Below are positions 1-18,503 of a stretch of 64,000 nucleotides of DNA, one piece after another. How positions within the stretch are numbered: position 1 is the stretch's first letter; each line of letters opens with the position of its first letter. Source of the DNA: Longimicrobiales bacterium (GTDB lineage Bacteria > Gemmatimonadota > Gemmatimonadetes > Longimicrobiales > Gaopeijiaceae). Made by a program: the position numbers and the translations under genes. Under the pieces are notes generated by a model. The model had not been told where the DNA came from. It saw nothing but the letters and a program-made list of their open reading frames with translations, and did not search any database. The stretch is taken from the NCBI GenBank assembly GCA_963664435.2, contig CAXXKM010000003.1, forward strand, positions 416,001 through 480,000, read 5' to 3'.

Positions 1-2488
1 CCGCCAGCTGCACAACGGGATGGTGTGCGGCGAGGAACTCGGTATCAGTGTGGTCGAAGGCGATCTCGGAATCAAACGTAACCGGCACCTGCTTGGAAAG
101 CGCCTTATGTAGGAATCGCTGGCGCGCAGCGCTGGGTGCCAGGTGCCGCACAGCCATGTCGAACTGGGGGGTCACGTGGAGGGTACGCACCCCCTCGCGG
201 CGCGCCGGACTCAAGCGCACTCGCGGGTATACACGTTCAAGAAAACCTCGAACGAACGCCTCGCGATCTGCTGCACCGAGGAATTCTCCACCACGAATTA
301 TGCGATCTAGCTGATCTTCGAAGTAGCCATCTCCGCTGACCAATCTGTTGGCTTCGGCTTCGAGTTTCTCAAGTTCGCGGCGGCGGTTCTCAATTGCGCG
401 GGCAGTTTTATCGATTCGTTCGTTCTCTTGCTCGGGGGTGAGACGGCGTGACAGCAGATCGCGCGTAAGGCGTCGGATCTCTTCGCCTATGATCGCTTCG
501 AGATCGCCAAGTGTGCGCTCGAAAACACCGATCCTGTGGTAGAGGCGAGCGAGCACTCGATCCTCAATAGTATCGGTGAGTGTGAAGTTGAAGATGAGGA
601 TTCGATCGGACTCCTGCCCAAGTCGGTCAACACGCCCGATCCGCTGTTCTATCTTCATCGGGTTCCAAGGCAGGTCGTAGTTGATAACGATGTGGCAGAA
701 TTGGAAATCGAGGCCTTCGCTGCCAACTTCCGAGGAGAGCAGTAGACGGACGCTTGGTTCTTCGCGGAATCGCCACATTCGCTTGCCGCGCTCGTCGCGT
801 TCTGGGTGTCGAGGATCGCTCGTGATCCCGCCATGGATCAACTCGCACGTGATTCCGTCGTGGTCCAATCGCTTCTTCAGGTATTTCAAGGTCGGTTTAT
901 AATAAGCAAATAGAATAATCTTCCTGCCGGGTTCCTCTTCATCAAGGTTCTTGAGGAGGCGCCGAAGTTGCTCGTACTTTGTGTCGGTGTTCCCTAGGCT
1001 TCGGGCGGCGTCGACCACCCTCTGGGTAATCTCGACCGAAAAAGTATGGGCAATATCTTCAAGATCGTGTGTCTCGGCGTCAAGTACATCCTCAAGACTC
1101 CATGTCGCCCTTCGCAAGAACCGGTTGCGGACGGCGGGCATGCAGGACGCGGCCTGTCGCTGCGCTCCCATGACTGCAAAGTATCTGATTGCACCCTTGT
1201 CGCTGGGAGCGTTGTCGCGGACGAATTCGGTAACTGCATCATAGAACTCGCGTTCCGGCAGGGTAAGGGCGATGGGGATTACCCGTGCAGTCCGAATGGT
1301 GGCATCAGGGAATACATCACGCTTCTTGGTGCGCGAGAAAATATGGCTCAGAAGACTGAGCTCCTCGAGGTCGTGCTGCAAGTCCGCGGCCCATGCGTGC
1401 CCGTTGTCGTCAGCGGACTCGGGAGGAGTTCGGATCTCCCGCCGGACGCGATCGTAAATCGGGTTGCCACCGAAGAAGCTTGCTCGTCCACCCATCCCGA
1501 GACTCTCGATCCGGTTCCGAATCTCATCGATGGGAGGCGGGACCGCCCGGGCCAGTCGCTGCGCTTCGACGACCGGTTCATTCGCGCGCAAGCGCTCCTG
1601 GAAGACTTCAAAATCATCAAACTCTGAGTCATCGAGCAACTGAAAGAGGTTGAAGAGGTTTTCCTCGCCGAGTTGTATGGGCGTGGCAGTCAGGAAGAGT
1701 ACAGCGTGGGCACCCCGGGCGAGAGCTCGGACCGTGCGGTGGCTGAGCGTCTGACGATTGCGGAGGTGGTGAGCTTCATCGACGATCAGGAGATCGAGTG
1801 GAAGCGGGGTTTCATTGAGGAGTTCGAGATGATCCTCATTGCGTACAGCCTGGAGCGAGATGATGTCCCGAGCTTCGGGAAGGTCTCCCAGTTGGGCGAG
1901 TTGTCGAAGCTGCTCCCGAAATTCGGCTGCCACGAGGATCTTGAACTCCTCATCGAATCGATGCCACATCTCTTCGCGCCATTTCAGGCACAGCGCGGCC
2001 GGGCAGACAACCAGCACGCGACGGAGAGCCCTCCGAGCCCTTTGTTCGATCAACACCAAACCTGCTTCGATCGTCTTTCCCAGCCCGACCTCATCCGCGA
2101 TTAGGAGACGTTGGTCAGGTGAGTCGAGGAACTTGAGGAGCGGCTTGTATTGATGCGGATAGAACGCAGTACGGGAACCCTGCAATGAGTATAATGTGTT
2201 GTCGAGCGGCGTATCGAGTTTGTGGAAGGTCACGAGTCGCAGGAAATCGTCCTTGTCGCCGAAAGCGTGCCTGAGTAGGAGTTGGTCTGGCGAGACTTGC
2301 GCTTCGAAGCTTGTGAGATCCGCTTCGTGGGAGACGATGAGTCCCCCTGCATGGAGCCTGATGCGATACCAGTAGGCACCGCCAAGCAGGTTGGGAGGCC
2401 GTATGACGTGCCCCACCTTCGAGCGGTCGCTGCGTAGCTGGACCTGGTCGTCCTGGGCGAAGCGCGGAATCGGAGTCGAGGGGGTCAT
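1..2488 (-). CDS. SNF2/RapA-like superfamily 2 helicase (3' end runs off the window; not in the ORF track)
   Basis: Manual minus-strand translation from ATG 2488 (MTPSTPIPRF...) gives YPHQYKP..LLIADEVGLGKTIEAG (motif I), LIVDEAHHLRN (DEAH), LLTATP, SEVGSEGLDFQ and NYDLPWNPMKIEQRIGRVDRLGQ (motif VI). The + strand ORFs here are its antisense shadow. Confidence 0.92.
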   Translation of the reverse strand, partial: MTPSTPIPRFAQDDQVQLRSDRSKVGHVIRPPNLLGGAYWYRIRLHAGGLIVSHEADLTSFEAQVSPDQLLLRHAFGDKDDFLRLVTFHKLDTPLDNTLYSLQGSRTAFYPHQYKPLLKFLDSPDQRLLIADEVGLGKTIEAGLVLIEQRARRALRRVLVVCPAALCLKWREEMWHRFDEEFKILVAAEFREQLRQLAQLGDLPEARDIISLQAVRNEDHLELLNETPLPLDLLIVDEAHHLRNRQTLSHRTVRALARGAHAVLFLTATPIQLGEENLFNLFQLLDDSEFDDFEVFQERLRANEPVVEAQRLARAVPPPIDEIRNRIESLGMGGRASFFGGNPIYDRVRREIRTPPESADDNGHAWAADLQHDLEELSLLSHIFSRTKKRDVFPDATIRTARVIPIALTLPEREFYDAVTEFVRDNAPSDKGAIRYFAVMGAQRQAASCMPAVRNRFLRRATWSLEDVLDAETHDLEDIAHTFSVEITQRVVDAARSLGNTDTKYEQLRRLLKNLDEEEPGRKIILFAYYKPTLKYLKKRLDHDGITCELIHGGITSDPRHPERDERGKRMWRFREEPSVRLLLSSEVGSEGLDFQFCHIVINYDLPWNPMKIEQRIGRVDRLGQESDRILIFNFTLTDTIEDRVLARLYHRIGVFERTLGDLEAIIGEEIRRLTRDLLSRRLTPEQENERIDKTARAIENRRRELEKLEAEANRLVSGDGYFEDQLDRIIRGGEFLGAADREAFVRGFLERVYPRVRLSPARREGVRTLHVTPQFDMAVRHLAPSAARQRFLHKALSKQVPVTFDSEIAFDHTDTEFLAAHHPVVQLA

Positions 2489-2512
2489 CAGCAGGCGCAG
2501 GCCGAGGGAATC

Positions 2513-3550
2513 TTATGCCAATAGTTCAAGTAGTTTCCGTAGTTTTCCGATCTTATCCAAGTTCTCCGACGACAAGTCGTCCGGGCTGAAATGCATGATC
2601 TCGTTCCGCACGTCCCTGACGTCACGTAGGAGCTTGACGAACACGCGGCGATCAAGGGGCAGCGTGAGCCGGTGCCAGTTCTTGCGCGCCTCGACCAAAC
2701 GAATGTATTCGCCAAAACTCAGATCCGCTGCGCTTCTGATCTGCCGTCTGTCGTCCCGAGGATCTCTGGCTTCCGCCATCTCTTCTCTGGAGAACACCTC
2801 ATCGATGAGCAGTCGTAACCGGTATTCGATCTCCTGAAGTAGCAGGAACGGAGCGGCTAACTCGTGGTATTTGAGGCTGAGGTCGCTGGTCGTGACGATG
2901 CCCGTAATTCTCTTATCAGGTCCCAAGACGAGCACGGCCTCCTGTTGCGCGATCTCCGCGACAGCGTCGAGGAGAGGAGTATCTAGTTCGACCGTCGAGT
3001 AGTCCTTATCGAGGCAATTTCGCACGTACTCGCAATCTGCATCCTCCTTCTTCGTTCTTGCGACACCAATCGAGCGCCAACTGATCATGCCGTCGATTCG
3101 ACGCAGATCTTGGGTAACGGGTAGTTGGGAATAGTTGTGATACATCATCTTGGTGACCGCGGCCGACAAGTTGTTATCGCGCTTGACGGACACAACTCCG
3201 CTGGTCGCCGCGGGCAGCATGCCCACATACAACGCAGGGTCCTTGGCTTGCGCCTCGGTATCTCTGGTGTCGCGAATAGACTCATCTTCCCCATTGTCGA
3301 CGTCGCCCTCGCCATTGGAAGGCTTCGCAGTTGCTAGTGAGAGATTTACGAATGCATCTATCCCGACGGTAGCGAAGTCAGGATCGGTGCTGAGGCCGAG
3401 GTCTTGCAGAGCGCGCCGGATGATCCAGACTACGGAAGAACCGCGGCGCTTGTGCCCGAACCAGGAGAGTAGGGTTCTTACCTTGACCCGGCGGCGGCTC
3501 CCGGCTTGCACGGACTGGGCGGCATCGATTAGTTGGGCGGGAATCGACAT
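2513..3550 (-). CDS. CBS-domain protein with C-terminal HEPN (Swt1-like) RxxxxH motif
   Basis: Tandem CBS pair (MMYHNYSQLPV..GMISWRSI; AVLVLGPDKRITGIVTTSDL), then LLQEIEYRLR..DLSFGEY..VRDVRNEIMH. Start taken at ATG 3550 (ORF track opens at 3619). Confidence 0.75.
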   Translation of the reverse strand: MSIPAQLIDAAQSVQAGSRRRVKVRTLLSWFGHKRRGSSVVWIIRRALQDLGLSTDPDFATVGIDAFVNLSLATAKPSNGEGDVDNGEDESIRDTRDTEAQAKDPALYVGMLPAATSGVVSVKRDNNLSAAVTKMMYHNYSQLPVTQDLRRIDGMISWRSIGVARTKKEDADCEYVRNCLDKDYSTVELDTPLLDAVAEIAQQEAVLVLGPDKRITGIVTTSDLSLKYHELAAPFLLLQEIEYRLRLLIDEVFSREEMAEARDPRDDRRQIRSAADLSFGEYIRLVEARKNWHRLTLPLDRRVFVKLLRDVRDVRNEIMHFSPDDLSSENLDKIGKLRKLLELLA

Positions 3551-3737
3551 GTTTGTTGACGCGTGGATGAAGTTCACCAAGAGCCGAGAGACGGTAGCAG
3601 GAATGATGGCTCTTGGCAACGTGGAAGCTCGGAGCTGAATGACAACTGGGTCACCGTCGGAACGGTGTCAAATAGCAAGACGATCCTCAGGAGCACTGCA
3701 CTGCTCCCAGCCGCCCTGCTTGAGTACCACTCAACAG

Positions 3738-6700
3738 TCAACCCAGGATCACCCGGTCGATCACCGATGCGATCGCCGCCGCATCTAGCCCTCCGCCCGG
3801 CTCGTCGCGCGTTTCGATCAGCGTTCCTTCCAGGCCTTCACCGACTTCCGGCGGTCGGATACCGCATTCCAGGTACTCGGCCCGCTTCTTCTCCCATCGG
3901 GTCCGGTACCCATGATCGTCGAGCATCCCGAGATGCTCCCAGTAGAACGTCACGCCCATCGCGTCGTCGGCGATCGTGAAATCCGGGTAGCGCGTGCGTC
4001 CATCGGGAAGCACGAGTGGCTGCTCGTAGGCGTAGTCGATCCCACGGGCGTGAAGCTTGTCAGCGATCACCAGCTCCGACTTCGAGCGTACGAGGTCACC
4101 GCGCTCCGTTCGATGAATCAGCCCTTCCTCGAGGAAGCGTTGCTGGGCGTCTACGGTTACTTCGCGCGGTAGCGGATCCGCGAAGAGGTTCGTCATGCGG
4201 CGAGCGATCTCCGAGTGTTCGTCACCGGGCATAGCGACGATACTCGACAAACGGCCCCTGATGAAGGATGACCAACCGATTCTGGTGGCGCGTTAGCGCC
4301 GTGTACAGTAGCTCGCGGGAGAGCAGCCAGCAGGGGTTGGAGATCACGACGAACGTGATGCCAAATTCGCTGCCCTGCGTTTTGTGAACCGTCAGGCAGT
4401 ATGCCAACTCGAGCGGGTTGATGGCCTCGTCCCCGAATTCGCCGGGGTTGAAGCGATACTTGGGTCCAAGCTGGCTGGCGAACTCGACCTCAAGTTTCCG
4501 CGGCAGGCCTTTGAACTTCCTCGTCTTGTATTGCCCAACAACGATGCCAATGTCGCCGTTGGCTAGGTAAGCTTCTCCAGCGGGCTTCGGCCAGACGTCG
4601 CGCCGGCGCTGGTTGATGACGTTGATTACTTTGTCGCCGTAGAGGAGCATCTGTGGACCCATCGGGCGTGGCATCTTGCGGCCCCAACCCTCCACGTCTG
4701 CAGCTTCGCGCGCCTTCGCCCGGAATCGCTTCTGGAGCATCCGGTTCAGCGCATCAACTCCCACGAGCCCGGCGCGTACAGGCGAAAGCATCTGCCAACC
4801 TTCCGCGCGTGCGGCGGCCCCCGGTCTGTCGCCGAAGCGGCTCCAGAAGAAGGCCCATGGAATGTCCCGATAACGCGCACCGCCCAAGGATTCCTCGAAT
4901 CCCAGTTCGTCGTCCGGCCCGGCGAGATCAAGCGCCTCGACCAACTCTGCGACAAGCTTCTCTTGAAGCTCCTCCGGGTGGTCCCACCGTACGAGGCGAA
5001 GACCTCCGCCTATTCGCCCGTCGCCCGCATCCAGCACGGCATCTGCGCCAGGATCGAGCGGCTGCCCGCTGAAATGCGATGCCAACAGGACATCGGCCCG
5101 GGCCGTGCCGCGCTGACGCCGGGGGATCGTAAGCTCGGCGTAGCTTGGCCCACAGCGTGGAAAAGGGGTCTCGAAGGTGTCGGGCTCCAACTCTTGGCAA
5201 ATGTCCACGAAGGGGCGACCCGCCCCGATAGGCGGGAGCTGGCGCGGATCCCCGACGAGCACGAGACGCTCGACGTTGCTGAGGGAGTCGATCAGCGCTG
5301 CGAGCTGTTCTTCGGTCAGCATCGAACACTCGTCCACCACCACGGTCCGGTAGTGGCTACAGCGAGGCGCCATCGCCTTGGGAAAGTAGGCGCTTGTCTC
5401 CGCGTCGTAGCGCTGCTGCCGGATAAGAAACTGCGCCAGCGTCTGGCCGGAACCCCGCATGCCGGTCTCGTCTTCCAAGCGCACACGAGCCTTGCCGGTG
5501 GGTGCGAGAAGCAGCAGCCCCTTCTCCGTAAGCCCGGGAAGCGAGCAGAGCATTCTCAGCAGTGTTGTCTTGCCCGTCCCTGCCGGGCCGATCAGCACAC
5601 ACAGACGTGAACGGAAAAGCTGCTCGAGCGCCGTCGCCTTCTCTCGCCGAGCGCGCTCCTCCAGCGCACGTTCGTTCCGATCCACGGGTAATGGATCACC
5701 AAGTCCCACATCCACGAGTCTACGCCAGTCGAGATCGACCAAGTGCGGCCTGCCCTTTTTTCGGCGCAGTACTTCGCGGCGGATGATCGTACGACACTCC
5801 GCGAGCCGGTCGACCTGATAAGCAGGCTCGTTCGCGCGGGTTGCTGCGCGGGTAACAACTGGCGCGAAGCTCTTCGCGCAAGCGTCGAGCACGTTCTCGC
5901 CGAGCGGGCAAGGCGGCTGGAGCGCGTGCTCCCGCGCCCTGCGGATGACCCAGCTTCGAGGGAGCAGGGTGTGTCCCTCGACCGCCGCCTTCTCTAAGAG
6001 ATCCACGACCAGTGCACGCACCCGCCGTTCGTCCGCCGGATCTTCGATGCGGCTCGGTTCCGCCAAGGGGAACTGCTCCCTCACGGTCTCGTCCGGGAAA
6101 AGGCCGCGGTCCACACTGCCAAACGCGATGGGGTCGGCGGAGCGCCTGTCGCGCTCGAAGATCAGGTACGGGTTGCGCAGGAGTTCTGTATCGTTGATCT
6201 GGAGACCGGCCTCCGCCCGCTCCGCGGTGTCGTAGACACGCAGCGCCTGTTTCTCTGAGATCGCGCAGCGGCTGAGGAGTTGGAGCAGGTCCCGCCGCTC
6301 TGCCGAGAGCCGCTTCCAGCCCCTCCGTAGCCCGTGCGTGAGGAGTTTCACCATGGGCCCACCGAGCCTCGCCGGATCTGCCATCACGGCGTCCACGAGC
6401 ACCCACGGATCGTCGCCGCCTCCGCGCTCCCGCAGCAACTCGATCTCGTACGCGAGCAGGCTACCGTGCTGGAAGCCCCACTCGTAGCCGAACGCCGAGA
6501 GCGCTGATCCCAAGCTGGGGAACGCACCACGCGCCTTCCAAAGCCGGTTGAGTTGCTTTCCGATCCATGCGATCGCCTGCTCCCACGGGCCATCGATTCG
6601 GCCGCGGACGCGGTGCAGCGTCGCAGCGCAGGCCACAAGGGACGCCACGGCACCGTCATGAGTTAGGAGCTCAGAGCCGTATGAGTAGGCGTCGAAGTGC

Positions 6701-7548
6701 TCGTCTGGAGCAAACGCCACGAACTCCTCGGGGTCGATCCCCTCGCGTTCGGCAAGAGCGAGTGCCTCCTGGTACGGAAAGAGGAAGCCATCCCCGAAGC
6801 CTGGTCGGACAGAATGGCCCACATTGCGCTCCCAAAGCACGCACCGTAGCGGTCGTCTTTCGCCCTTGTAGGCATACTCAGTATGGTCGCCTAAGGAGAG
6901 AACACGGCCCGCCCCGATGATCACACGGCGGGACTGTTCCGACAGCGGGGTGCGCTTCGCGTAGAAGAAGCAGAGCGATTCCTCTGGCCTGAGCGCGCTG
7001 AAAAAGGTGTCGAGCAGTGCGAGTTGGTTCTCGCGCTCCTGTACCCACGCCGTCTCCACCTGTTTGCCTTGGTGACTGCGGATGTCGGGTTCTCGGTCCG
7101 GCACCCAGCCGATCTTCAGTCGCTCGGCGATCCCTACCTCATTGTCCCTGGCGTTCCCCTCGACCTTCTCGCGCAGCATCCATCGAAACGGTACGCAAGC
7201 CGCAGAGTACGCCGGCTGGACGAAGCGGGTTGGAGCGAAATGACCGTGCGTCTCGGGGTAGAATCCCGTGTACGGATGGGTCATCGTCCGCGGGAGGTCG
7301 AAGGGAGCCATGAACGAGACACGCTCGCCTACACACGGTGGCAGGTCAGCGCGGTCAAGCGCGTCTAGCCGCTGGCCAGCACAGCGCGTTTCTATTTCGT
7401 CGCGTCGGCCTTCGCCGATGCGGGGCAGGATGAGGCAGCTTGAGTTGTCTAGGGGTCGGGCACATACCGTGCCAGTCCAGCCCCCGTCGTGCCATGGGAC
7501 ACGGATGGTGATGTGGTGAGGTGGTAGTTCGCGAGCGTCGGCAATCAT
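3738..7548 (-). pseudogene. RecD-like SF1B helicase with C-terminal PD-(D/E)xK-type nuclease, split by a 1-nt frameshift near 4227-4229
   Basis: ORF 4222-7548 has GPAGTGKT, VVVDECSM, LVGDPRQLPPIG, AYCLTVHKTQGSEF and ELLYTALTR. ORF 3738-4250 has RSKSELVIAD..YEQPL..PDFTI..YWEHLGM. Removing one base gives continuous YRRYAGDEHSEIARRMTNLF. Confidence 0.8.
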
Positions 7549-7552
7549 CTAC

Positions 7553-7747
7553 TCAACTCCCGGCAACAAAAGGTGCCTCCTGCAAGCGATTGGGATTCTG
7601 AACGACAAAGAACTTGACGAGGTATCCAACATTCTCCGAGGTCCACAGACTCTTCTCCGTGAACACGGATCCGTCGTCTCGAAGGCAGCGGTCCCGCCAA
7701 CGGGCAGCTGCACGCAGAACAGGGTGGTCGGGCGATGGTTTGGGCAT
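7553..7747 (-). pseudogene. Truncated N-terminus of an McrB-like AAA+ restriction protein
   Basis: HPVLRAAARWRDRCLRDDGSVFTEKSLWTSEN resembles, from memory, N-termini of McrB-family proteins. Only 64 aa with no AAA motifs. Confidence 0.4.
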
Positions 7748-8005
7748 TGCGCTGTGGACCCCGGGGATGGGTAAGCTGATGTTGGTCGAACGCGTCCTCG
7801 TGTGTCCCCGGCTCTACCGAATCGGCATATCGACAGACCTACCCTTGCATGCCATCTTGCGTGAGGCAAGTCGCGACGACCTCGTCCAGGCCACCTCCCG
7901 CGGCGTCTTGGACGCGTCGACGGACACCATCGATCAAGCGGTCCGGGTGGTCGAAGCCCTCCTCGACCGGGAAGACCCGAAAAAGGAAACGGCGTGCAGC
8001 CCGAG

Positions 8006-8932
8006 ATGACTCCCGAACGATTCCTGCGGCTGGTGAACGACATCACCATCTGGAAGAAGGGTAGTCAGCGGGCACCCCACAAACCGCTCCTGCTTCTTCT
8101 TATGCTTGGTCGCTCCTTCCATGGCGAGGTACGCCTGATTCCATTCACCGAGGCGGAGACGCGCTTTGGAGAGTTGTGGCGCAGATTCGGCCCGCCGAGG
8201 CGAGGGCTCGTCCAGTATCCGTTTCGATATCTCGAGAACGACGGCATCTGGGAAATCCCCCGAGTATCCGAGCTGCCTTCGTGGGACACGGACTATCTGC
8301 GTTTGACGGACCTGAGAAAGCATGATGTCGAGGGAGGATTCACTCGCGAGGTCTCCGAATTGCTGGAGTCCGACCCGGAGTTGGCTCTCAGAGCCGCCAG
8401 ACTCCTCCTCGCAGGCCATTTCCCGATCTCTCTGCACGACGAGATTCTCGAAGCCGTCGGCCTCTCCCACGACCTGTGGGTGCCGGGATTACCCCGCCTG
8501 CGCGAGCCCGGCAAGAAGCAACGAATGGTGGTCTACCGCAGACCGCGACGCCTGGTATTCCGCAAGGAGGTGTTGGAGGCGTACGACGAGCGCTGCGCGA
8601 TCTGCGACTTCGATCTCCGGATCAATGACGAACTGCTGGGACTCGAGGCCGCGCACATCCAGTGGCACTCCCACAACGGGCCGGACAATGTGTTCAACGG
8701 CTTGGCCCTCTGTCTGCTTCATCACCGGGCGCTCGATCGAGGCGCGGTTGGACTGGAAGCCAAGGGCAAGGGCTATCGCGTGCTGGTCTCCGGCCACGTC
8801 CGGGGAAGCAAACCCAGCGAGAGCCTCCTCTCCGATTCCTCAGGGCAGCTCATTCGGCCTCCGCAAAGCAGACTGCACGTGCCTCATCGCACCTTCGTTG
8901 ACTGGCACCGGGCGCAGGTCTTCCGGAACTGA
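8006..8932 (+). CDS. SBD-HNH endonuclease (phosphorothioated-DNA-dependent type IV restriction enzyme family)
   Basis: N-terminal RAPHKPLLLL and YPFRYLENDGIW sulfur-binding-domain motifs. C-terminal CAIC..LEAAHI..NGLALCLLHH HNH motif. Confidence 0.82.
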   Translation: MTPERFLRLVNDITIWKKGSQRAPHKPLLLLLMLGRSFHGEVRLIPFTEAETRFGELWRRFGPPRRGLVQYPFRYLENDGIWEIPRVSELPSWDTDYLRLTDLRKHDVEGGFTREVSELLESDPELALRAARLLLAGHFPISLHDEILEAVGLSHDLWVPGLPRLREPGKKQRMVVYRRPRRLVFRKEVLEAYDERCAICDFDLRINDELLGLEAAHIQWHSHNGPDNVFNGLALCLLHHRALDRGAVGLEAKGKGYRVLVSGHVRGSKPSESLLSDSSGQLIRPPQSRLHVPHRTFVDWHRAQVFRN

Positions 8933-9430: not shown

Positions 9431-9504
9431 GGCCAGATAGCTCAGCTGGATAGAGCACCGGTTTGCTAAACCGGGGGTCGGGGGTTCGAGTCCCCCTCTG
9501 GGTC
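9431..9504 (+). tRNA. Atypical tRNA/pseudo-tRNA, anticodon GCT, short variable loop, Arg-like D-loop
   Basis: Cloverleaf GGCCAGA-TA-GCTC AGCTGGATA GAGC-A-CCGGT TTGCTAA ACCGG-GGGTC-GGGGG TTCGAGT CCCCC-TCTGGGTC. Acceptor stem imperfect, no encoded CCA. Confidence 0.8.
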
Positions 9505-9690: not shown

Positions 9691-10030
9691 ATTCAAGGGA
9701 CCTTTTCCGCGTCCAGAACAGGGCGAACAAATACACAATCGTACGGGTTTACGAGAGAGCGAGGTTGCAGGGGTGGAGCATCAGGTGGAAGCGCTCCCAC
9801 CCGACATAGGCTTCGGAATCCACCTTCTAGTACCCGGCCCGCTTGAGGTGCTTCTGGACGCACCCCCGGGACTTGTGTTACCGGCCATGCAAAACTTCAC
9901 AGATGTGGCCGTCCAAATCTGCACACTTCCGGGCCCGAGGGGCGGCTGCGGTAGAGGGTTGGATCCGAGGTTTGCGGGTGTTGCGGGACTGCTGGGCAAT
10001 CTTGCGTCTCCATTGAACGGAGGAGGCGCA

Positions 10031-10986
10031 GTGATCGGGAGGGAGAAGCGGATGCTCTTGCGACATTATCTCGAGCAGGGGATGCCGAAGGCCGAGATCG
10101 CGCGGCAGCTGGAGATCAGCAGGCGGACGGTGTACAACTGGATCGAGGCCGGGGAGCTGGACCGAGGTGCGGACAGCAAGGCGGTGAGGTACGGGCCCAG
10201 GCCACGGCGGCCGTCGAAGCTCGACCCCTACACGGGCATCATCGACGCGCGCCTGGCCGAGTATCCGAAGCTGAGCGCCGTGCGTCTGTTCAACGAGGTG
10301 CGGGCGGCGGGCTTCGGAGGCGGCTACGGGCAGGTGAAGCGCTACGTGCGCGAGGTCCGGCCGCGGGAGCCTGTGGAGCCGGTCCGGAGGTTCGAGACCG
10401 CTCCGGGCCACCAGGGCCAGGTGGACTTCGCCGACTTCCGGCTGCCGTGGGGCAAGCGGCACGCGCTGATCGTGGTGCTGGGCTATTCGGGGCGGATGTG
10501 GTTGAGGTTCTACGAGCGCCAGACGATGCCGGTCGTAATGCGGGGGCTGGAGGCGTCGTTCGCCTACTTCGGCGGTGTGCCGTCGGAGTTGCTGTTCGAC
10601 CAGATGAAGGCCGTCATCACCGCGCATGCCGTCCGTACCGCGCCCAGACGAAGGGGAAGGTCGAGCGGCCGGTCCGCTATATCCGGGACAACTTCTTCTA
10701 CGGCCGGGAGTTCGTGTCCGACGACGACCTCAACAAGCGGATCCTGCTGTGGCTCGACGGGGTGGCCAACGTTCGGGTCCACGGCACGCTGAAGGAGCGC
10801 GTGGCGGACCGGTTCGACCGCGAGAGGCCAAGCTTGAGTCCCTTGCCTCCCTGGCCCTACCGTCCCGTGGCGCCGCGGCACGAGCCTTGGACGACACAGA
10901 CTGAAGCACCGTCGGCGCCCCCCGTCGCGGAGGTTGAGCGCCGTCCGCTGTCCGAGTACGCCGGGATCACGGGAGAGATCTCGTGA
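10031..10986 (+). pseudogene. istA: IS21 transposase IstA, internal deletion and frameshift near 10620
   Basis: HTH, SKLDPY, RFETAPGHQGQVDF and LLFDQMKAVI, then a jump to RACRPYRAQTKGKVER in another frame. The usual intervening segment is missing. Confidence 0.88.
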
Positions 10987-11804
10987 AGGCGCGGTCCCGA
11001 AGCACGCGCATCGCGGCCCAATTGGCCGATCTGAAGATGCCCGGCGCCCTGGAGGCCCTCGATGACGTGCTCGCAGGCGTGGACGGCGGCGGAACCACCG
11101 CGGCCGAGGCCATCGAGTTGCTGCTGGTCGCCCAGATCACGCTGCGCAACAGCCAGCGCCTTGCAACCGCCATGCGATCGAGCCGTCTTCCGGCGATCAA
11201 GACGCTGGCGGACTTCGACTTCAGCTTCCAGCCCTCGGTCAAGCGGGAACAGATCGACTCGCTCCACGAACTCGGGTGCCTGGAACGGAAGGAGAACGTG
11301 GTCTTCCTCGGCCCGCCCGGCGTCGGCAAGACGCACCTCGCGATCAGCCTGGCCATCACCGCAGCCGAGAGCGGCCGCCGAGTCTACTACGGAACGCGGG
11401 CCGACCTCATCGACTCCCTCGAAGAGGCCCCGGCCGCCGGCCGGCTCAACCACCGGCTCAAGACCCTCACCCACCCGGCGCTCCTGGTCGTGGACGAGAT
11501 CGGCTACCTCCCGGTCACCCGCAGCGGCGCCATCCTGTTCTTCCAACTCGTCAACCGCCGCTACGAGCATGCCTCGACCGTGGTCACCTCGAACAAGGGC
11601 TTCGAGCAGTGGGGCGAGATCCTGCACGACGAGGTCATGGGCGCCGCGCTGCTGGACCGGCTGCTCCACCGCTGCCACATCGTCAACATCCGCGGCAACA
11701 GCTACCGGATGCGACGCCACATGGAACTCTCCAAGGCCATCCACCCGACGGCCTCCCGCGCCGTCTCCGCGGAGCACGCCGGCAACGGGGAAACAGGGTC
11801 ATGA
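10983..11804 (+). CDS. istB: IS21 helper ATPase IstB
   Basis: KTLADFDFSFQP, GPPGVGKTHLA, LLVVDEIGY, TSNKGF, LLDRLLH, GNSYR. Confidence 0.93.
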   Translation: MKARSRSTRIAAQLADLKMPGALEALDDVLAGVDGGGTTAAEAIELLLVAQITLRNSQRLATAMRSSRLPAIKTLADFDFSFQPSVKREQIDSLHELGCLERKENVVFLGPPGVGKTHLAISLAITAAESGRRVYYGTRADLIDSLEEAPAAGRLNHRLKTLTHPALLVVDEIGYLPVTRSGAILFFQLVNRRYEHASTVVTSNKGFEQWGEILHDEVMGAALLDRLLHRCHIVNIRGNSYRMRRHMELSKAIHPTASRAVSAEHAGNGETGS

Positions 11805-11952: not shown

Positions 11953-12822
11953 CTATCCGCTGCTCCGAAGACCGTCCAAAGCTCCCAAGAACTCTAACCT
12001 GACCGCATTCCACTCGTGATGTGACTGTACCACCGGACACCAAAACCGCACCGAGTCAGCTGCGGCGTCGAAACCCTCCATGGGAAACGTCAAGACACCC
12101 TTCAGTTCGATGCCCAGCGTGTCACGGCCGACGTAGTGTGAGGTCACGTAGTCGTGAGCCGGGCTCCATCCTTCGCGCACTCGCACTTCACTCTCGTTCA
12201 ATCGATCCCTGAGGCGCTGCCCTACCGACCTGAGGCGTTCCTGAACTAGGCCCGCGACCAGATTCCGTGGCCGCTCCTGCAACGTTTCTTCAACTTCCGC
12301 CAGGGTTTCATAGCTTCCCCTAGTGCTTCGGAGCAACTCATCGCGCTCCGCGTCGGTATCGAGTTCAGGCAACGGCTGCCACCCCATAGTACCGTCCAAG
12401 AACCACCCGCCGTGCGTCGGAGTCGCCCTATACTGCCAAGCGTACACTCTTGCGTCCACCGCCATGCGCGCGACATCCAATAATCCGAGTTGGCCGCTAA
12501 GCTCTTCGAACGCCGCTTCATCGCTTGATGTCAAGGACGTGTCCGGCATGGCTACTTGGAAAAAGACTCCGTCCGTGGTAGAGAGGGGTTCGCTATTCTC
12601 ATTCACCTGACACCAGTATCCCAAGGTGACGGGAATGGTATCGCGCCCGGCGGTCAGCAACTGCGTCGGGCCAAAGGAACGAAACATCCCCGTTCTAGCC
12701 CCGGTGAGATCATCTACCTCGGCCTGTACTGAGCCCGGCCAAGGGATCCGGCTTGGGCGGCCATCCGCGCAGCTAGACGCTACTATGACGAGGGCGGCCA
12801 GCGCCGGTACTACACTCCTCAT
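11953..12822 (-). CDS. Hypothetical lipoprotein
   Basis: 289 aa ORF with signal peptide/lipobox (LVIVASSC) and GGAG... context. No recognised domain. Confidence 0.6.
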   Translation of the reverse strand: MRSVVPALAALVIVASSCADGRPSRIPWPGSVQAEVDDLTGARTGMFRSFGPTQLLTAGRDTIPVTLGYWCQVNENSEPLSTTDGVFFQVAMPDTSLTSSDEAAFEELSGQLGLLDVARMAVDARVYAWQYRATPTHGGWFLDGTMGWQPLPELDTDAERDELLRSTRGSYETLAEVEETLQERPRNLVAGLVQERLRSVGQRLRDRLNESEVRVREGWSPAHDYVTSHYVGRDTLGIELKGVLTFPMEGFDAAADSVRFWCPVVQSHHEWNAVRLEFLGALDGLRSSG

Positions 12823-14206: not shown

Positions 14207-17200
14207 TCACCGAACCTCCGATTCTACGTCTTCTTGCCGAACTATCATATCGGAGTGTCGCGGTTCTCTTTCCGCACACTGCGCCCACATGTCAGCATAG
14301 AAGCCGTATCGAAGCTGGCCGCGATTCCGCGTCCATGGGATGGGAAAGACTCGCGGATTATCCGTCTCCGTGCGATCGACTACATAGAGCCAGTATTCCA
14401 GTTCGTCCTCTGTGTGCTGGAGGGCGTCCTCCACCTGGCGCGCGGTAAGAAGCACGCTCGCATCCTCCGCGAAATCCCCCTTGACACCCTTCACTTCGAT
14501 GCGTCGCTGCCGCCCCGTCACGGGGTCGTCGCTGAGAACATCGAAGCCCGGTTGACCGGCTGGCATTTCCTTAGCCGGGCGTTTGTGCCGTATCTCGTAC
14601 TTGACCACGGCAGCGCGCGCCTTCTTATCGTCCTTCGGTGGAGTACTGGTCTTGGTTGGCTCGACCGCATCCGAGCCCCCCGCACCGGACACCGAGGACG
14701 CCCTTCCCTGATTCCTGGCGATGAGAATCGCGAATTGGTCTGCTGCGGGGCTCGAATCAGGCGCTGTCCTTTTCGATTGGGTGGCCCGACCCTTGGGTGC
14801 GACCCTGCGGCTTTGGTCGTCGGGCGGTTCCCGACCCGAATCCGGGCCAGCTCGAGTCGTGCCTGCTGGCTCCGGATCAACGGGACCTGTCGGCAGGGGT
14901 TCTCTCGTGTCTGTCTCAGGTCTATCGATCGTTGGCTCCGGTACGGACAACCCGAGGCCGCTGGCGAGCACTTTCAGATTCTCAGAAAACCGTTCATCCT
15001 CCGCAAGGGAACCAAGCGCTGCCGTGAGCCGCGGTATCGAGTTACCTCGCTGTCCCAACTGGAAATGCTCGACGAGTTGCTCAGCCGCTTCCGTACCGAA
15101 GGTCGCTGGAGTCCCAGTGACCATGAGTTCATCATGGACGAGATAGGCGGTGACTTGGTGCCTCTCGCCTTCGACCCACAACGCAAGGTGTAGGCGGCAG
15201 GTAATCCTGCTCAGGGGTTGGCGACCCTCAAGGGTGCCAAGAGCCACCACAAGTCTCTTTAGATTACCCATCCACGGCGGTCGGGGAAGCTCACGTCCTT
15301 TACTTATCTTGATCTTGGTCGAAAGGCACGCGATCCCAAGTTCGGCCGCAACGAGGCGAATCTGTTCTGGGACACCTCCGAGGTGTGCGGCCGAGATGGC
15401 TACCCGGTTGGCTGTAAGCAGTTGGCGAATGAAGGGGGATCGGACATCATCGACCACGAGTGAGTCGCTGATCTCATGCCAACGACCCTTGCCATAGAGC
15501 CGAGCCTCTTGCTTTGCGTCGCGCCAGACTCCACGGTCCAGATCGTCGCGCTCCAAGTCTTGAAGGACGTAGCGATACGCGGACGCTGTGTGGGCTCGGA
15601 TCTCATCCACGGACTTCGGCCTAAGTCTCCAGCATTCAGAGAGATATCCGAGAGCCTGCTGGCCCGTGGTTGTCCTGGGCAGCTCGATCTCAATTCGATC
15701 CACCGCCGCAGCCAAACCCGCCTCGACAGAGGAAAGCGCCACGACCCATCCGCCGAGGTCACTTCGCGTCCCGGGACGACCAGCCTCTCGCACTACACGC
15801 TCCAGTGGGACGCCGCGTAGCTTCACGGAGCGAAACGTGGCTATCAGTTCATCGCGCGTCACGTTGCCCGCCTCGATCTCTGCCAGCGCCTCTTCGAGCA
15901 AACCCGCCAGATCGGCGTCCGGCAAGTTAGATGAGCCTCGCTTCTCCAACCGGCGCAGCACGGGAGAGAGAGATGTCGGCGCCGAAACGAACCCCTTCCT
16001 GCTTCAAGCGGTTCGCTAAGTCCGGGTCGATACGCGCGAGGGGCGCATCTTCGTAGTCGGGGTCGGCGTCGAGTAGCAAATCTGCGGGCTTCCTGCGTTG
16101 GCCATCTTCACAGAGAATCCACGGAAGCTGCTCCAGTGCTTTAACCCACAGCGAGCGTCGTTCTCCGTCAGTTGTCTTCGGCCCACGGTAGCTGCTGGTC
16201 GCCTTCACCCTGCCCTTGCGCGCAAGAAGGGTATGTTCGCGTGAAAGCCACCTCTGTAGGGCATCAAGTGGGACGGTTTGAACCTTGAAGGGCAGGTCGT
16301 AGTCGAGCACAGTCCATCCCGACGCTTGCGCTGCACGCTTAATCCGGTCCAACTCGATCCCGAGCAGCTTGCCGACGGCCTGCTTGTCGTAGCCGACATG
16401 GACGCGCCGTTCCGTCAGGGTGGCGTCACCACGAACCCCAAGTCGTTCGATGAAGCGCACCGCCGCCTGCTGGTCGTCGATAAGAGCGTAGTCCTCCACG
16501 AGCGCTGGCACGCTCGGGAAGAGTCGGCGTCGATCCTCTCCGCCCGGCACGAGCGGATCCGCCAGCAATGCTGCGGATGGCTTGTGCGCACCACCCTCGG
16601 TCATGACCAGCGGCACTAGGTCTTGGCGGTTCGGATTCCGGGAAACGGCCCAATCCAGGAGTTCGACGAGCGGGAAGGCGTCGCCGTCTCCGGCATCGGT
16701 GCAAACTTGCCGAACGATGTCTTTCAACCGCTGCTCCCGGTGCCGTTCCTGCAGCCAGGTGACGCCTGGGTGGGTGCGATGTTGATTGACAAGCGCGCGG
16801 ATTCTCGGTGGCACGCGTTGTTCGGCGGCAGGCAAGAAGCCAGCGAGCGCCTCGGCGACCACAGCCCCACTCGGTTCCTTGACGGACGGCGGTTCTTCGT
16901 TGAGCCAGCACGTATCGTCGGCGCGGAGCCACCCGTCGGCTTCCGTAGGGACGACGGGTGCGTGGTGCCATTCCTGCTCGGAGACGCACGACCAAAGCGC
17001 AAAGAGCGCGTCGGTGTTCCCCTCCACCGCGGACCACCAAGGCGGTAGCGTGACAGTCCACTCTACGGCATCAGGATCGATGTCGAGTCCCCACCCAAGC
17101 CAGTTGGCGAACTGCACGGCGCGACTCCCCAAGAGACCTTCATCCATCAGGTCGCGGTCAAACAGCAAATCTGGACGCCACGCCGGGCGTTTTCCAAACT

Positions 17201-18503
17201 CGCTGAGAAACCGGCCGGGAAGGCGCACGATGTCTCTTGGTGTGGAGAATCTGGTTTCTGGGCGGAGAACCGGAACGATCTTGAGATCCCCGAGCAAACG
17301 GATGAAATCGCACCGTAGGGCACCAAGTACATCGGAGACCTCCCCTTCGAGCCGGGTGGGGTTAGACAGTATCCGGTAACCCCGGCTCATGGCGGATTCC
17401 GACTGCTCCTTCAGCCAAAGAAGTATTTCTCGCACAAGCATCGGGACTTGCTGCACGATTGCTTCCTGCCAAGGATCTCCTCTGATGGCCCGGAGGCTCT
17501 GACGTTCCAGGTTGACCAGCCAGTCCGCCTGCAAATGGAATCCGAAGGGAATGGACACCCGAGTCGGAAGTGTCGCGTAGACCCGACCTTGGGACGGTGG
17601 GTTCGGTAACCCGTCCTCGTCCAAGGGCACGAGCGCCACGACGCTCCGCTTCGGCCGCTCTGACCCACTGGCCTCTTGGTACGTGAGGTCTTGGCGCGCC
17701 TCCAAGAACCGTCGCATCGCGGCGTCATCCGGGCGATAGCATGACACGAAGAATCGCCACCGCCGAGAGAGCCCATCGGGCGCGCGACGAACTTCGACCA
17801 CTCCGTCCCGCACCGAGAGGTCCCAAGTGACATCGTCAATGCACACCTGCTCCAAGCCCCGCAACGCGAGCACGGACAACGGAGTTGGGTCGTCTGGGGA
17901 CGCTAGGCGCGCTAGGTCGTCGGCCAAGCGGGCCGCCGGGGCTACGGGACGAGTAAGGTGAAAGGCGGTAGTGTAACCAGCATCGGGATCGAGCCGCTCA
18001 CGGTCCCAGTGTGGCTGTAGGGCGTCGAACCAGTCAGAGACCGTGGCGCCGAGCGCCCCGTGGCGCTTTCCGATGTCGAACCTAATGCGCCAGCCGAAAC
18101 CCGAAATCCGCGCTGTTCGAAACCGATTGAAGACTGACTTGAATCCAACTCCCATGAACCCGATGGCGTCCTGCCCCTTGGTCGAAGCACCAATCGAAGA
18201 CAGCCCATCCACACCAGGTTCGTCCAACGCAGCGTCCCCATCATGCTGGAACAACAGCGACCCACCGTTGGTCCTCCAGTAGATTCGTCGAGCACCCGCA
18301 TCGATTGCGTTCTGTGACAAGTCGTAGACGTAGGCCCACGGGTGCGGGTGTCCGGCAGCGAGCATGGTCTCGACCATCTTGCGTGCAGGTGGGCCAAAGT
18401 GCTCGTCGTTCTCGCGGCGCACCTGCTCGACGAAGGCGCGCCGTTCCCGCTCGCCTACATTCACTGTCACGCCCCGGTCCTTCCCAGACGTTACCTCGCT
18501 CAT
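14207..18503 (-). pseudogene. Sacsin-like GHKL ATPase with C-terminal DUF3883/NOV-C nuclease-like domain, split at a (TC)5 tract
   Basis: ORF 15927-18503 has YDLSQNAIDA, FQHDG, IGFMGVGFKSVF and LPT..PFGFHLQADW. ORF 14207-15961 ends GFDVLS..RRIEVKG..LTARQ..YWLYVV. Adding 2 nt at 15964-15973 fuses them. Confidence 0.8.

Follow-up and report, generated by a model that had tools for sequence, protein, structure and literature searches.

The minus-strand gene run

The DNA considered here is a 64,000-nucleotide stretch of a Longimicrobiales genome (the window, whose position 1 is position 416001 of contig C3), and our subject is the gene run with which it opens, a series of minus-strand open reading frames (ORFs) at 7553-7747, 4222-7548, 3738-4250, 2513-3550 and 2-2488, the last of them open at the window edge. 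The intergenic gaps along the run are 4, ~188 and 24 bp, and its Pfam matches are to AAA_30/UvrD_C_2, CBS and SNF2/Helicase_C. The first-pass annotation, made from the window alone, had described co-oriented minus-strand genes with short gaps, in agreement with these coordinates, and had raised the idea that an mcrB stub, a RecD-like helicase-nuclease, a CBS-HEPN protein and an SNF2 helicase form one undescribed defence system. The island holding the run extends leftward past the window start, and the conserved partner of the SNF2 protein is a fifth gene outside the window, unseen in a window-only reading. The features of the run are as follows (aa, amino acids; PADLOC profiles were searched singly, with system rules not applied):

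7553..7747, minus strand: mcrB-like remnant, a 64-aa ORF holding the N-terminal ~50 residues only, with no GTPase domain and no mcrC behind it
4222..7548, minus strand: 5' part of PDC-S68, 1108 aa; PADLOC PDLC05065 1300 bits, profile 5-1066 of 1221; Pfam AAA_30, UvrD_C_2
4227..4229, minus strand: one-base insertion in a C run, splitting PDC-S68 between the helicase and the nuclease domain; absent in metagenome loci L104 and L105
3738..4232, minus strand: 3' part of PDC-S68; PDLC05065 192 bits, profile 1062-1219; weak match to a PD-DEXK model
2513..3550, minus strand: DS-11-family CBS-HEPN protein, 345 aa, intact (Y140, R315, H320); NCBIfam DS11_antiphage 339.1 bits
1..2488 plus 616 bp beyond the window start (C3:415384-418488), minus strand: RapA/DrmD-like SNF2 ATPase, intact, 1034 aa; best PADLOC model DrmD, 572 bits
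C3:414431-415387 and 412620-413300, minus strand: fifth gene, a predicted actin/Hsp70-type ATPase, overlapping the SNF2 gene by 4 bp and split by an IS630 element

The mcrB stub of the first-pass annotation holds up, in that the 64-aa ORF resembles the N-termini of McrB-like proteins. In tblastn it matches the N-termini of plasmid 'AAA family ATPase' genes, among them a Rhizobium plasmid gene (55% identity over 42 residues) that is followed by McrC and itself matches the McrB model below cut-off; it is also 50% identical to the start of a McrB-like ORF in locus L154, and the same 64-aa stub is present in L104. McrBC membership was rejected: there is only an N-terminal remnant, PDC-S68 is the next gene, and the McrB GTPase-McrC order is lacking.

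The two ORFs that follow jointly span the full-length, 1221-position PDC-S68 profile. The 5' part comprises a Cys/His-containing N-terminal region and a RecD-type SF1B helicase (GPAGTGKT, DECSM, HKTQG), and the 3' ORF, which is 170 aa long from a TTG (3738-4250) or 164 aa from an ATG at 4232, carries a predicted PD-(D/E)xK/Vsr-type nuclease, the catalytic assignment coming from the motifs SKSE...PDF...WEHLG. A frameshift had been implied by the first-pass annotation, and indeed an extra C stands at window position 4229 relative to L104 and L105, which share 99.2% identity over the operon, lack both this base and the insertion sequence (IS), and hold one uninterrupted PDC-S68 gene of 1269 aa; in our strain the gene is interrupted. 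Sequencing error as the cause of either the frameshift or the IS is excluded by the contigs of all four sequencing runs (X1, X3, X5, X6; three studies, one labelled sponge metagenome), which span the extra C without difference and in every case reach across at least one IS junction. Since the frame break is located after the last helicase motif, and the in-frame ATG at 4232 overlaps the upstream stop, a split but working PDC-S68 is possible, its halves being made separately. PDC-S68 as catalogued by PADLOC has the same RecD-type helicase and C-terminal nuclease-like domain, and this strain's copy differs in being split by the frameshift. The PDC set consists of systems that are candidates only, found by embedding (10.1101/2024.01.29.577857); the name PDC-S68 is absent from the main text of that preprint, as distinct from its supplementary tables, and from the full texts searched. 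Elsewhere PDC-S68 comes after PLD-SNF2/Type ISP pairs, LexA and other genes.

By every sequence measure applied, the CBS-HEPN gene belongs to the DS-11 family. It scores 339.1 bits against the NCBIfam equivalog NF053863 (cut-off 260; profile 1-305 of 305), aligns over its full length with DS-11 WP_000257686.1 at 39% identity over 346 columns, and combines a Pfam CBS domain with the HEPN motif RNEIMH. The essential Tyr and Arg are present and the residues are in register, with Y157, R330 and H335 of WP_000257686.1 corresponding to Y140, R315 and H320, and the length of 345 aa, counted from the ATG, agrees with homologues at 67-88% identity, which are mostly 344-346 aa long. According to the accessible text of PMC13092281, DS-11 is a one-protein anti-phage system that protects alone in E. 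coli, where it was validated as a one-gene system, it depends on CBS Y157 and on HEPN residues such as R330, and its natural ligand is an open question; HEPN-CBS fusions had been predicted in 2013 as ligand-regulated RNases (PMC3710099, in its accessible part). The nucleotide-gated HEPN RNase proposed by the first-pass annotation is thus the published model of DS-11. Both proteins are single chains with tandem CBS and HEPN domains, and they differ in setting: DS-11 of E. coli KE47 stands alone beside an integrase, whereas the window copy is wedged between PDC-S68 and the SNF2-actin pair. As a separate observation, locus L154 (genome G482) encodes at ~6150-6984 a protein whose HEPN (RNDVMH) precedes its CBS-like repeats, opposite to the DS-11 order; it lies behind McrBC, 4 kb before an SNF2-actin pair, and gives no match to the DS-11 profile.

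A conserved pair of SNF2 and actin/Hsp70-type ATPases

The SNF2 protein matches the RapA model and its motor motifs are intact. The gene behind it is broken by an IS630 insert of ~1.13 kb, an identical copy of which lies on contig C1, and is intact in L104, where it encodes 543 aa. The fifth protein has no Pfam match and only a weak match to MamK; a profile built from 54 homologues matches actin-like, Hsp70, FtsA and MreB chains about equally (expect value (E) ~1e-7). The actin/Hsp70 superfamily is recognized by five motifs, named phosphate 1, connect 1, phosphate 2, adenosine and connect 2. All five are conserved across the alignment of the 54 homologues, where G83-D85-G87-T88-K92, P281-E282, D309-G311-G313-T314-D316, G436-G438 and G504-L505 are invariant or nearly so. 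From the motifs and the profile matches we read the protein as a putative stand-alone ATPase of the actin/Hsp70/sugar-kinase superfamily, and its family is large, with 1,956 clusters at 50% identity (E up to 1e-30). Domain and profile scans found no nuclease or toxin domain in either the SNF2 or the actin-like protein. Prediction of a complex between SNF2 residues 1-110 plus 650-1034 and the actin-like protein, with the motor core omitted for size, returned a score of 0.00, which weighs neither for nor against an interaction. As a side observation, one 937-aa protein (P0152, on a single 7525-bp contig) joins SNF2 residues 360-874 to an actin-like protein from residue 115, and the join may be a fusion that occurs naturally, the product of an in-frame deletion or an error of assembly.

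The association of these two genes extends far beyond our strain. We surveyed the best 80 of 581 SNF2 relatives in species genomes and, for the gene downstream, took the 60 longest, leaving out 20 that were shorter and more distant; with one locus lacking a usable ORF and five lacking downstream DNA, 54 were counted. The gene after SNF2 is actin-like in 20 of these, belongs to one other cluster in 30 and is something else in 4, and the gene upstream varies between loci. Members of the 30-locus cluster match the sacsin domain in 5 of 5 cases tested (one just under cut-off) and TmtA in 4 of 4. In a FastTree phylogeny of 77 SNF2s, from which L019 was left out because its ORF is split, all 27 actin-partnered proteins fall within one clade (support 0.996) that includes one sacsin-partnered archaeal member and is sister to the sacsin-partnered clade (support 1.0). 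Trees of SNF2 and partner, compared over 22 pairs, have 10 of 11 supported splits in common, with a distance correlation of r 0.97, and such matching across phyla reflects shared inheritance, not contact. Among 313 other genomes of the family, the actin-like gene occurs in 7, in all 7 directly behind SNF2, and the pair is also found on plasmids, once with the gene order reversed; pairs from culturable hosts include those of L009, L011 and the Sphingobium plasmid L157. SNF2 and the actin/Hsp70-type ATPase are, therefore, a conserved two-gene unit.

Two arrangements lie beside this pattern. In Methanosarcina (L020:13029-19130) the gene after one SNF2 of the actin-partnered clade encodes a sacsin protein of 2033 aa instead, which suggests a partner swap. 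In L129 (13955-23132) and L136 a five-gene run comes after PDC-S68, and two of its ORFs weakly match the actin-like profile (E 8e-16 and 2e-4) with no SNF2 directly before them, making this a different Hsp70-like module.

RapA-like SNF2 proteins are likewise found in DISARM class 1 (DrmD), BREX (BrxHII), ARMADA II (ArmA) and ietHAS (IetH), and the window's SNF2, at ~1030 aa, is set apart from DrmD relatives by a score below the DrmD cut-off (366 against 610 bits with the NCBIfam model, for the 99%-identical L104 allele) and by a partner, the actin/Hsp70-type ATPase, that has no family model. DISARM class 1 and BREX type 3 comprise drmMI, drmA, drmB, drmC or pglZ/brxC. No methyltransferase, DrmA/B/C or PglZ, nor drmMI or brxC, was found among the 10 and 14 neighbouring ORFs scanned, a subset of the island, and membership of both systems was rejected, for DISARM class 1 also on the DrmD score. 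Reuse of DrmD-like helicases with other partners is described in the accessible parts of the reports on ARMADA II, BREX-related systems and ietHAS (10.1101/2025.09.22.677730, PMC12839542, PMC13069673). In the sister SNF2 clade, the equivalent downstream slot holds a sacsin/TmtA-like chaperone-fold ATPase (the 30 of 54 loci above), and Tiamat-like ATPases often adjoin Swi/Snf helicases, as reported in the accessible text of 10.64898/2026.09.30.754977; here, in contrast, the slot is filled by a predicted Hsp70/actin-fold ATPase, unrelated to the GHKL ATPases and with no nuclease domain detected.

In CoCoNuT CnuD/CnuCD, too, an Hsp70-like ATPase domain shares a defence locus with HEPN and McrB-related genes, although the CnuD motifs are described as degenerate in the accessible text of PMC11090510, whereas all five are conserved here and the partner is an SNF2. 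CoCoNuT membership, defined in the same text by an McrB GTPase with NxD motif, McrC/DUF2357 and a coiled-coil tandem together with the Hsp70-like unit, was rejected, there being no McrB GTPase, McrC or coiled-coil tandem in the operon. PDC-M61 was likewise set aside: neither the PDC-M61A nor the PDC-M61B model matched in the genome at E 0.001 (the M61A control matched nowhere), and homologues of the partner match PDC-M61B weakly and over short stretches only. None of the text portions consulted on ARMADA II, BREX-related systems, ietHAS, Tiamat and CoCoNuT, which exclude supplements, mentions an SNF2 that is paired with an actin/Hsp70 ATPase standing alone, and no description was found in the searched literature, whose reach leaves out most subscription journals and bioRxiv supplements.

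Three modules and their linkage

Conservation of the neighbourhood across genomes had been named by the first-pass annotation as a check on its proposal, and the result is unfavourable to one system. None of the 80 SNF2 loci has DS-11 nearby, and among 41 PDC-S68 loci 2 do, namely L104 and L105, which are copies of the window's own allele (of 37 metagenome PDC-S68 loci, 19 had at least 1.3 kb behind the gene, and several are duplicates). Across 300 genomes of the phylum, PDC-S68 occurs in 4, DS-11 in 3 and SNF2 in 3, with no genome holding all of them, and in G374 DS-11 and an SNF2 lie 326 kb apart. In the 313 other family genomes DS-11 is found in 16, the actin-like gene in 7 and both in 1. 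Each module thus occurs without the others. A single new system is not supported, because DS-11 and PDC-S68 are already named or catalogued, and with them two of the three intact-type genes of the supposedly undescribed combination, an outcome that the first-pass annotation had itself named as refuting.

Overall, we believe that the locus is a co-oriented stack of three separable modules, PDC-S68, DS-11 and the SNF2-actin pair, behind an mcrB remnant, and that it is probably a layered anti-phage cassette decaying in this strain. Only DS-11 and SNF2 are intact, PDC-S68 being frameshifted and the actin-like partner broken by IS630, and judging from these lesions DS-11 is probably the only working layer. 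In the intact cassette, PDC-S68 would use its RecD-type motor to unwind invader DNA and its nuclease tail to cut it. In DS-11, as in E. coli, binding of an adenine nucleotide by the CBS domains would license the HEPN RNase, which would probably halt the infected cell. SNF2 would translocate on double-stranded DNA and strip or remodel invader nucleoprotein complexes, with the actin-fold protein as its ATP/ADP-switched regulator. The three layers would likely add up rather than form one machine.

Several observations weigh against this reading, and most of them concern linkage. Genome G456 (L153) has DS-11, SNF2 and the actin-like gene side by side, with identities of 68, 79 and 57%. By a shared-contig proxy, that is, the same longest-contig value for two protein clusters, which shows a common contig, not gene order, and misses G456, DS-11 goes together with the actin-like gene in 12 of 35 close DS-11 clusters (63-88%) and in 0 of 84 more distant ones listed. 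Two of the 12 contigs are only 6.4 and 7.5 kb long, and three (61733, 23069 and 29852 bp) also match a PDC-S68 cluster and seem to hold all three genes; among 119 listed PDC-S68 clusters, 5 share the proxy value with an actin-like cluster. In L018 and L111/L112, where DS-11 is absent, the pair is immediately preceded by PDC-S68. In a set of 14 linked pairs the divergence of DS-11 tracks that of the actin-like protein (r 0.62, Mantel p 0.0002), down to ~65% and 59% identity; the HEPN R/N/H are retained in all 14 and the CBS Tyr in 12. The last of these points lies elsewhere: in five loci (L007, L008, L010, L017, L021) the pair sits directly behind housekeeping genes.

The arrangement does recur, and its recurrence could mean functional coupling. 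For example, the pair, with or without PDC-S68, might sense or process invader DNA in this clade, ATP turnover or direct contact then activating DS-11 via its CBS domains, and the 24-bp gap and 4-bp overlap between the genes, the co-divergence with its retained HEPN and CBS residues, the three contigs and the unestablished natural ligand of DS-11 (PMC13092281, accessible text) are all consistent with such an arrangement. We consider it unlikely. DS-11 protects alone in E. coli, 15 of the 16 family genomes with DS-11 gave no match to the actin-like gene, co-divergence is explicable by physical linkage alone, and close pairs at 80-82% SNF2 identity lack DS-11 altogether (L141, L152). These pairs nest among the DS-11-linked ones, which suggests a single gain of DS-11 by the pair within a close clade, followed by repeated loss. 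Within the recurring arrangement, SNF2-actin is the sole obligatory partnership; the linkage of DS-11 to it appears to be new.

The same co-divergence bears on the opposite view, in which all of the genes are recent independent insertions into a hotspot with no shared history. The island is crowded with a type I Zorya system, PDC-S37, SBD-HNH, Tiamat-like ORFs and IS elements, and DS-11 and the pair are found together in 1/313 genomes of the family, about what chance would give. Yet the matching SNF2 and actin-like trees largely refute this history for that pair, DS-11 and the pair have co-diverged, and we hold it to be highly improbable. The first-pass annotation had offered independent hotspot neighbours as its alternative; this lies closer to the data than one system does, but overlooks the apparent joint inheritance of the modules within a single close clade.

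The housekeeping neighbours raise a different question, that of whether the pair is defensive at all. A RapA-like protein that remodels either a mobile element or host transcription could have landed in defence islands, leaving DS-11 and PDC-S68 as the only defensive parts, and this would agree with the RapA match, the absence of any detected nuclease or toxin domain, the five housekeeping loci and the plasmid copies. We rate it as having little probability: the best models of the SNF2 are those of defence helicases (DrmD, BrxH), the sister SNF2 clade has Tiamat-like sacsin ATPases as partners, and the distribution is patchy (7/313 family genomes), with frequent restriction-modification (R-M), Abi and Zorya neighbours. 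Indeed, the defence genes near the pair include type I R-M, AbiE, DrmB, Zorya, HNH and GmrSD/WYL. The SNF2-actin pair is thus likely to serve defence, as far as models and neighbours can indicate, and likely makes an undescribed defence module of its own. This role is put forward as likely rather than observed because the pair also sits behind housekeeping genes and no nuclease domain was detected. The same five loci weaken the view that the pair cannot do without a nuclease upstream.

The apparent four-gene new system resolves into parts that can each be tested. The locus as present in the window consists mostly of catalogued parts in decay, and the natural allele L104:10001-19793 offers one intact construct holding the PDC-S68 candidate, an unnamed large ATPase family with its DrmD-like SNF2, and DS-11. 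For the DS-11 ligand, an obvious place to search is the clade in which DS-11 is kept next to two ATPases. Eukaryotic Snf2 remodellers carry actin/Arp subunits. One speculative possibility, which we regard as doubtful, is that the pair is a new two-component immune machine of bacteria, parallel to these remodellers, with DS-11 captured as effector in a sponge-associated clade and the pair's activity on phage DNA supplying the adenine-nucleotide signal that opens the CBS-gated HEPN RNase.

Neighbouring genes of the island

The defence context claimed by the first-pass annotation is supported, and the SBD-HNH and sacsin/DUF3883 genes that it had placed in the island are both present in the window. 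G+C is mostly 0.58-0.66 across the first 24 kb and ~0.70 in the remainder of the window. The further defence genes are:

7994..8932, plus strand: SBD-HNH phosphorothioate-dependent restriction endonuclease; NCBIfam PT-DNA_restrict 278 bits, cut-off 180
L002:9983-17580 (C3:393983-401580), beyond the window's left edge: Zorya type I operon, complete (ZorA-D), by PADLOC profiles
Adjoining the Zorya operon, same island: PDC-S37 gene, 1706 aa, by PADLOC profile

The SBD-HNH gene is a divergent neighbour outside the operon; its relatives are found near the SNF2-actin pair in 4 of 7 family loci (L142, L153, L155, L156), in L153 directly upstream of DS-11 and on the same strand. The Tiamat-like gene is present as two overlapping minus-strand ORFs at window 14207-18503, a sacsin-type N-part of 858 aa and a DUF3883 C-part of 584 aa, both of which match TmtA models, and it is possibly another split defence gene.

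A scan for promoters and terminators found nothing above shuffled sequence (1 vs 1.7; 9 vs 6.5), and the output of a DNA search with the 13-kb stretch across 150 family genomes was dominated by IS630 copies. The ORFs at window 9773-11804 (plus strand) resemble, by eye, an IS21 istB and a seemingly frameshifted istA. Beside them, at 9431-9504 (plus strand), is a tRNA-Ser(gct) call of only 74 nt, a possible integration site of the island. Genes similar to pRiA4b ORF-3 occur three times in the left flank, and two similar unannotated ORFs with signal-peptide-like starts, at window 11953-12822 (minus strand) and L001:3336-4364 (minus strand), flank the cassette.

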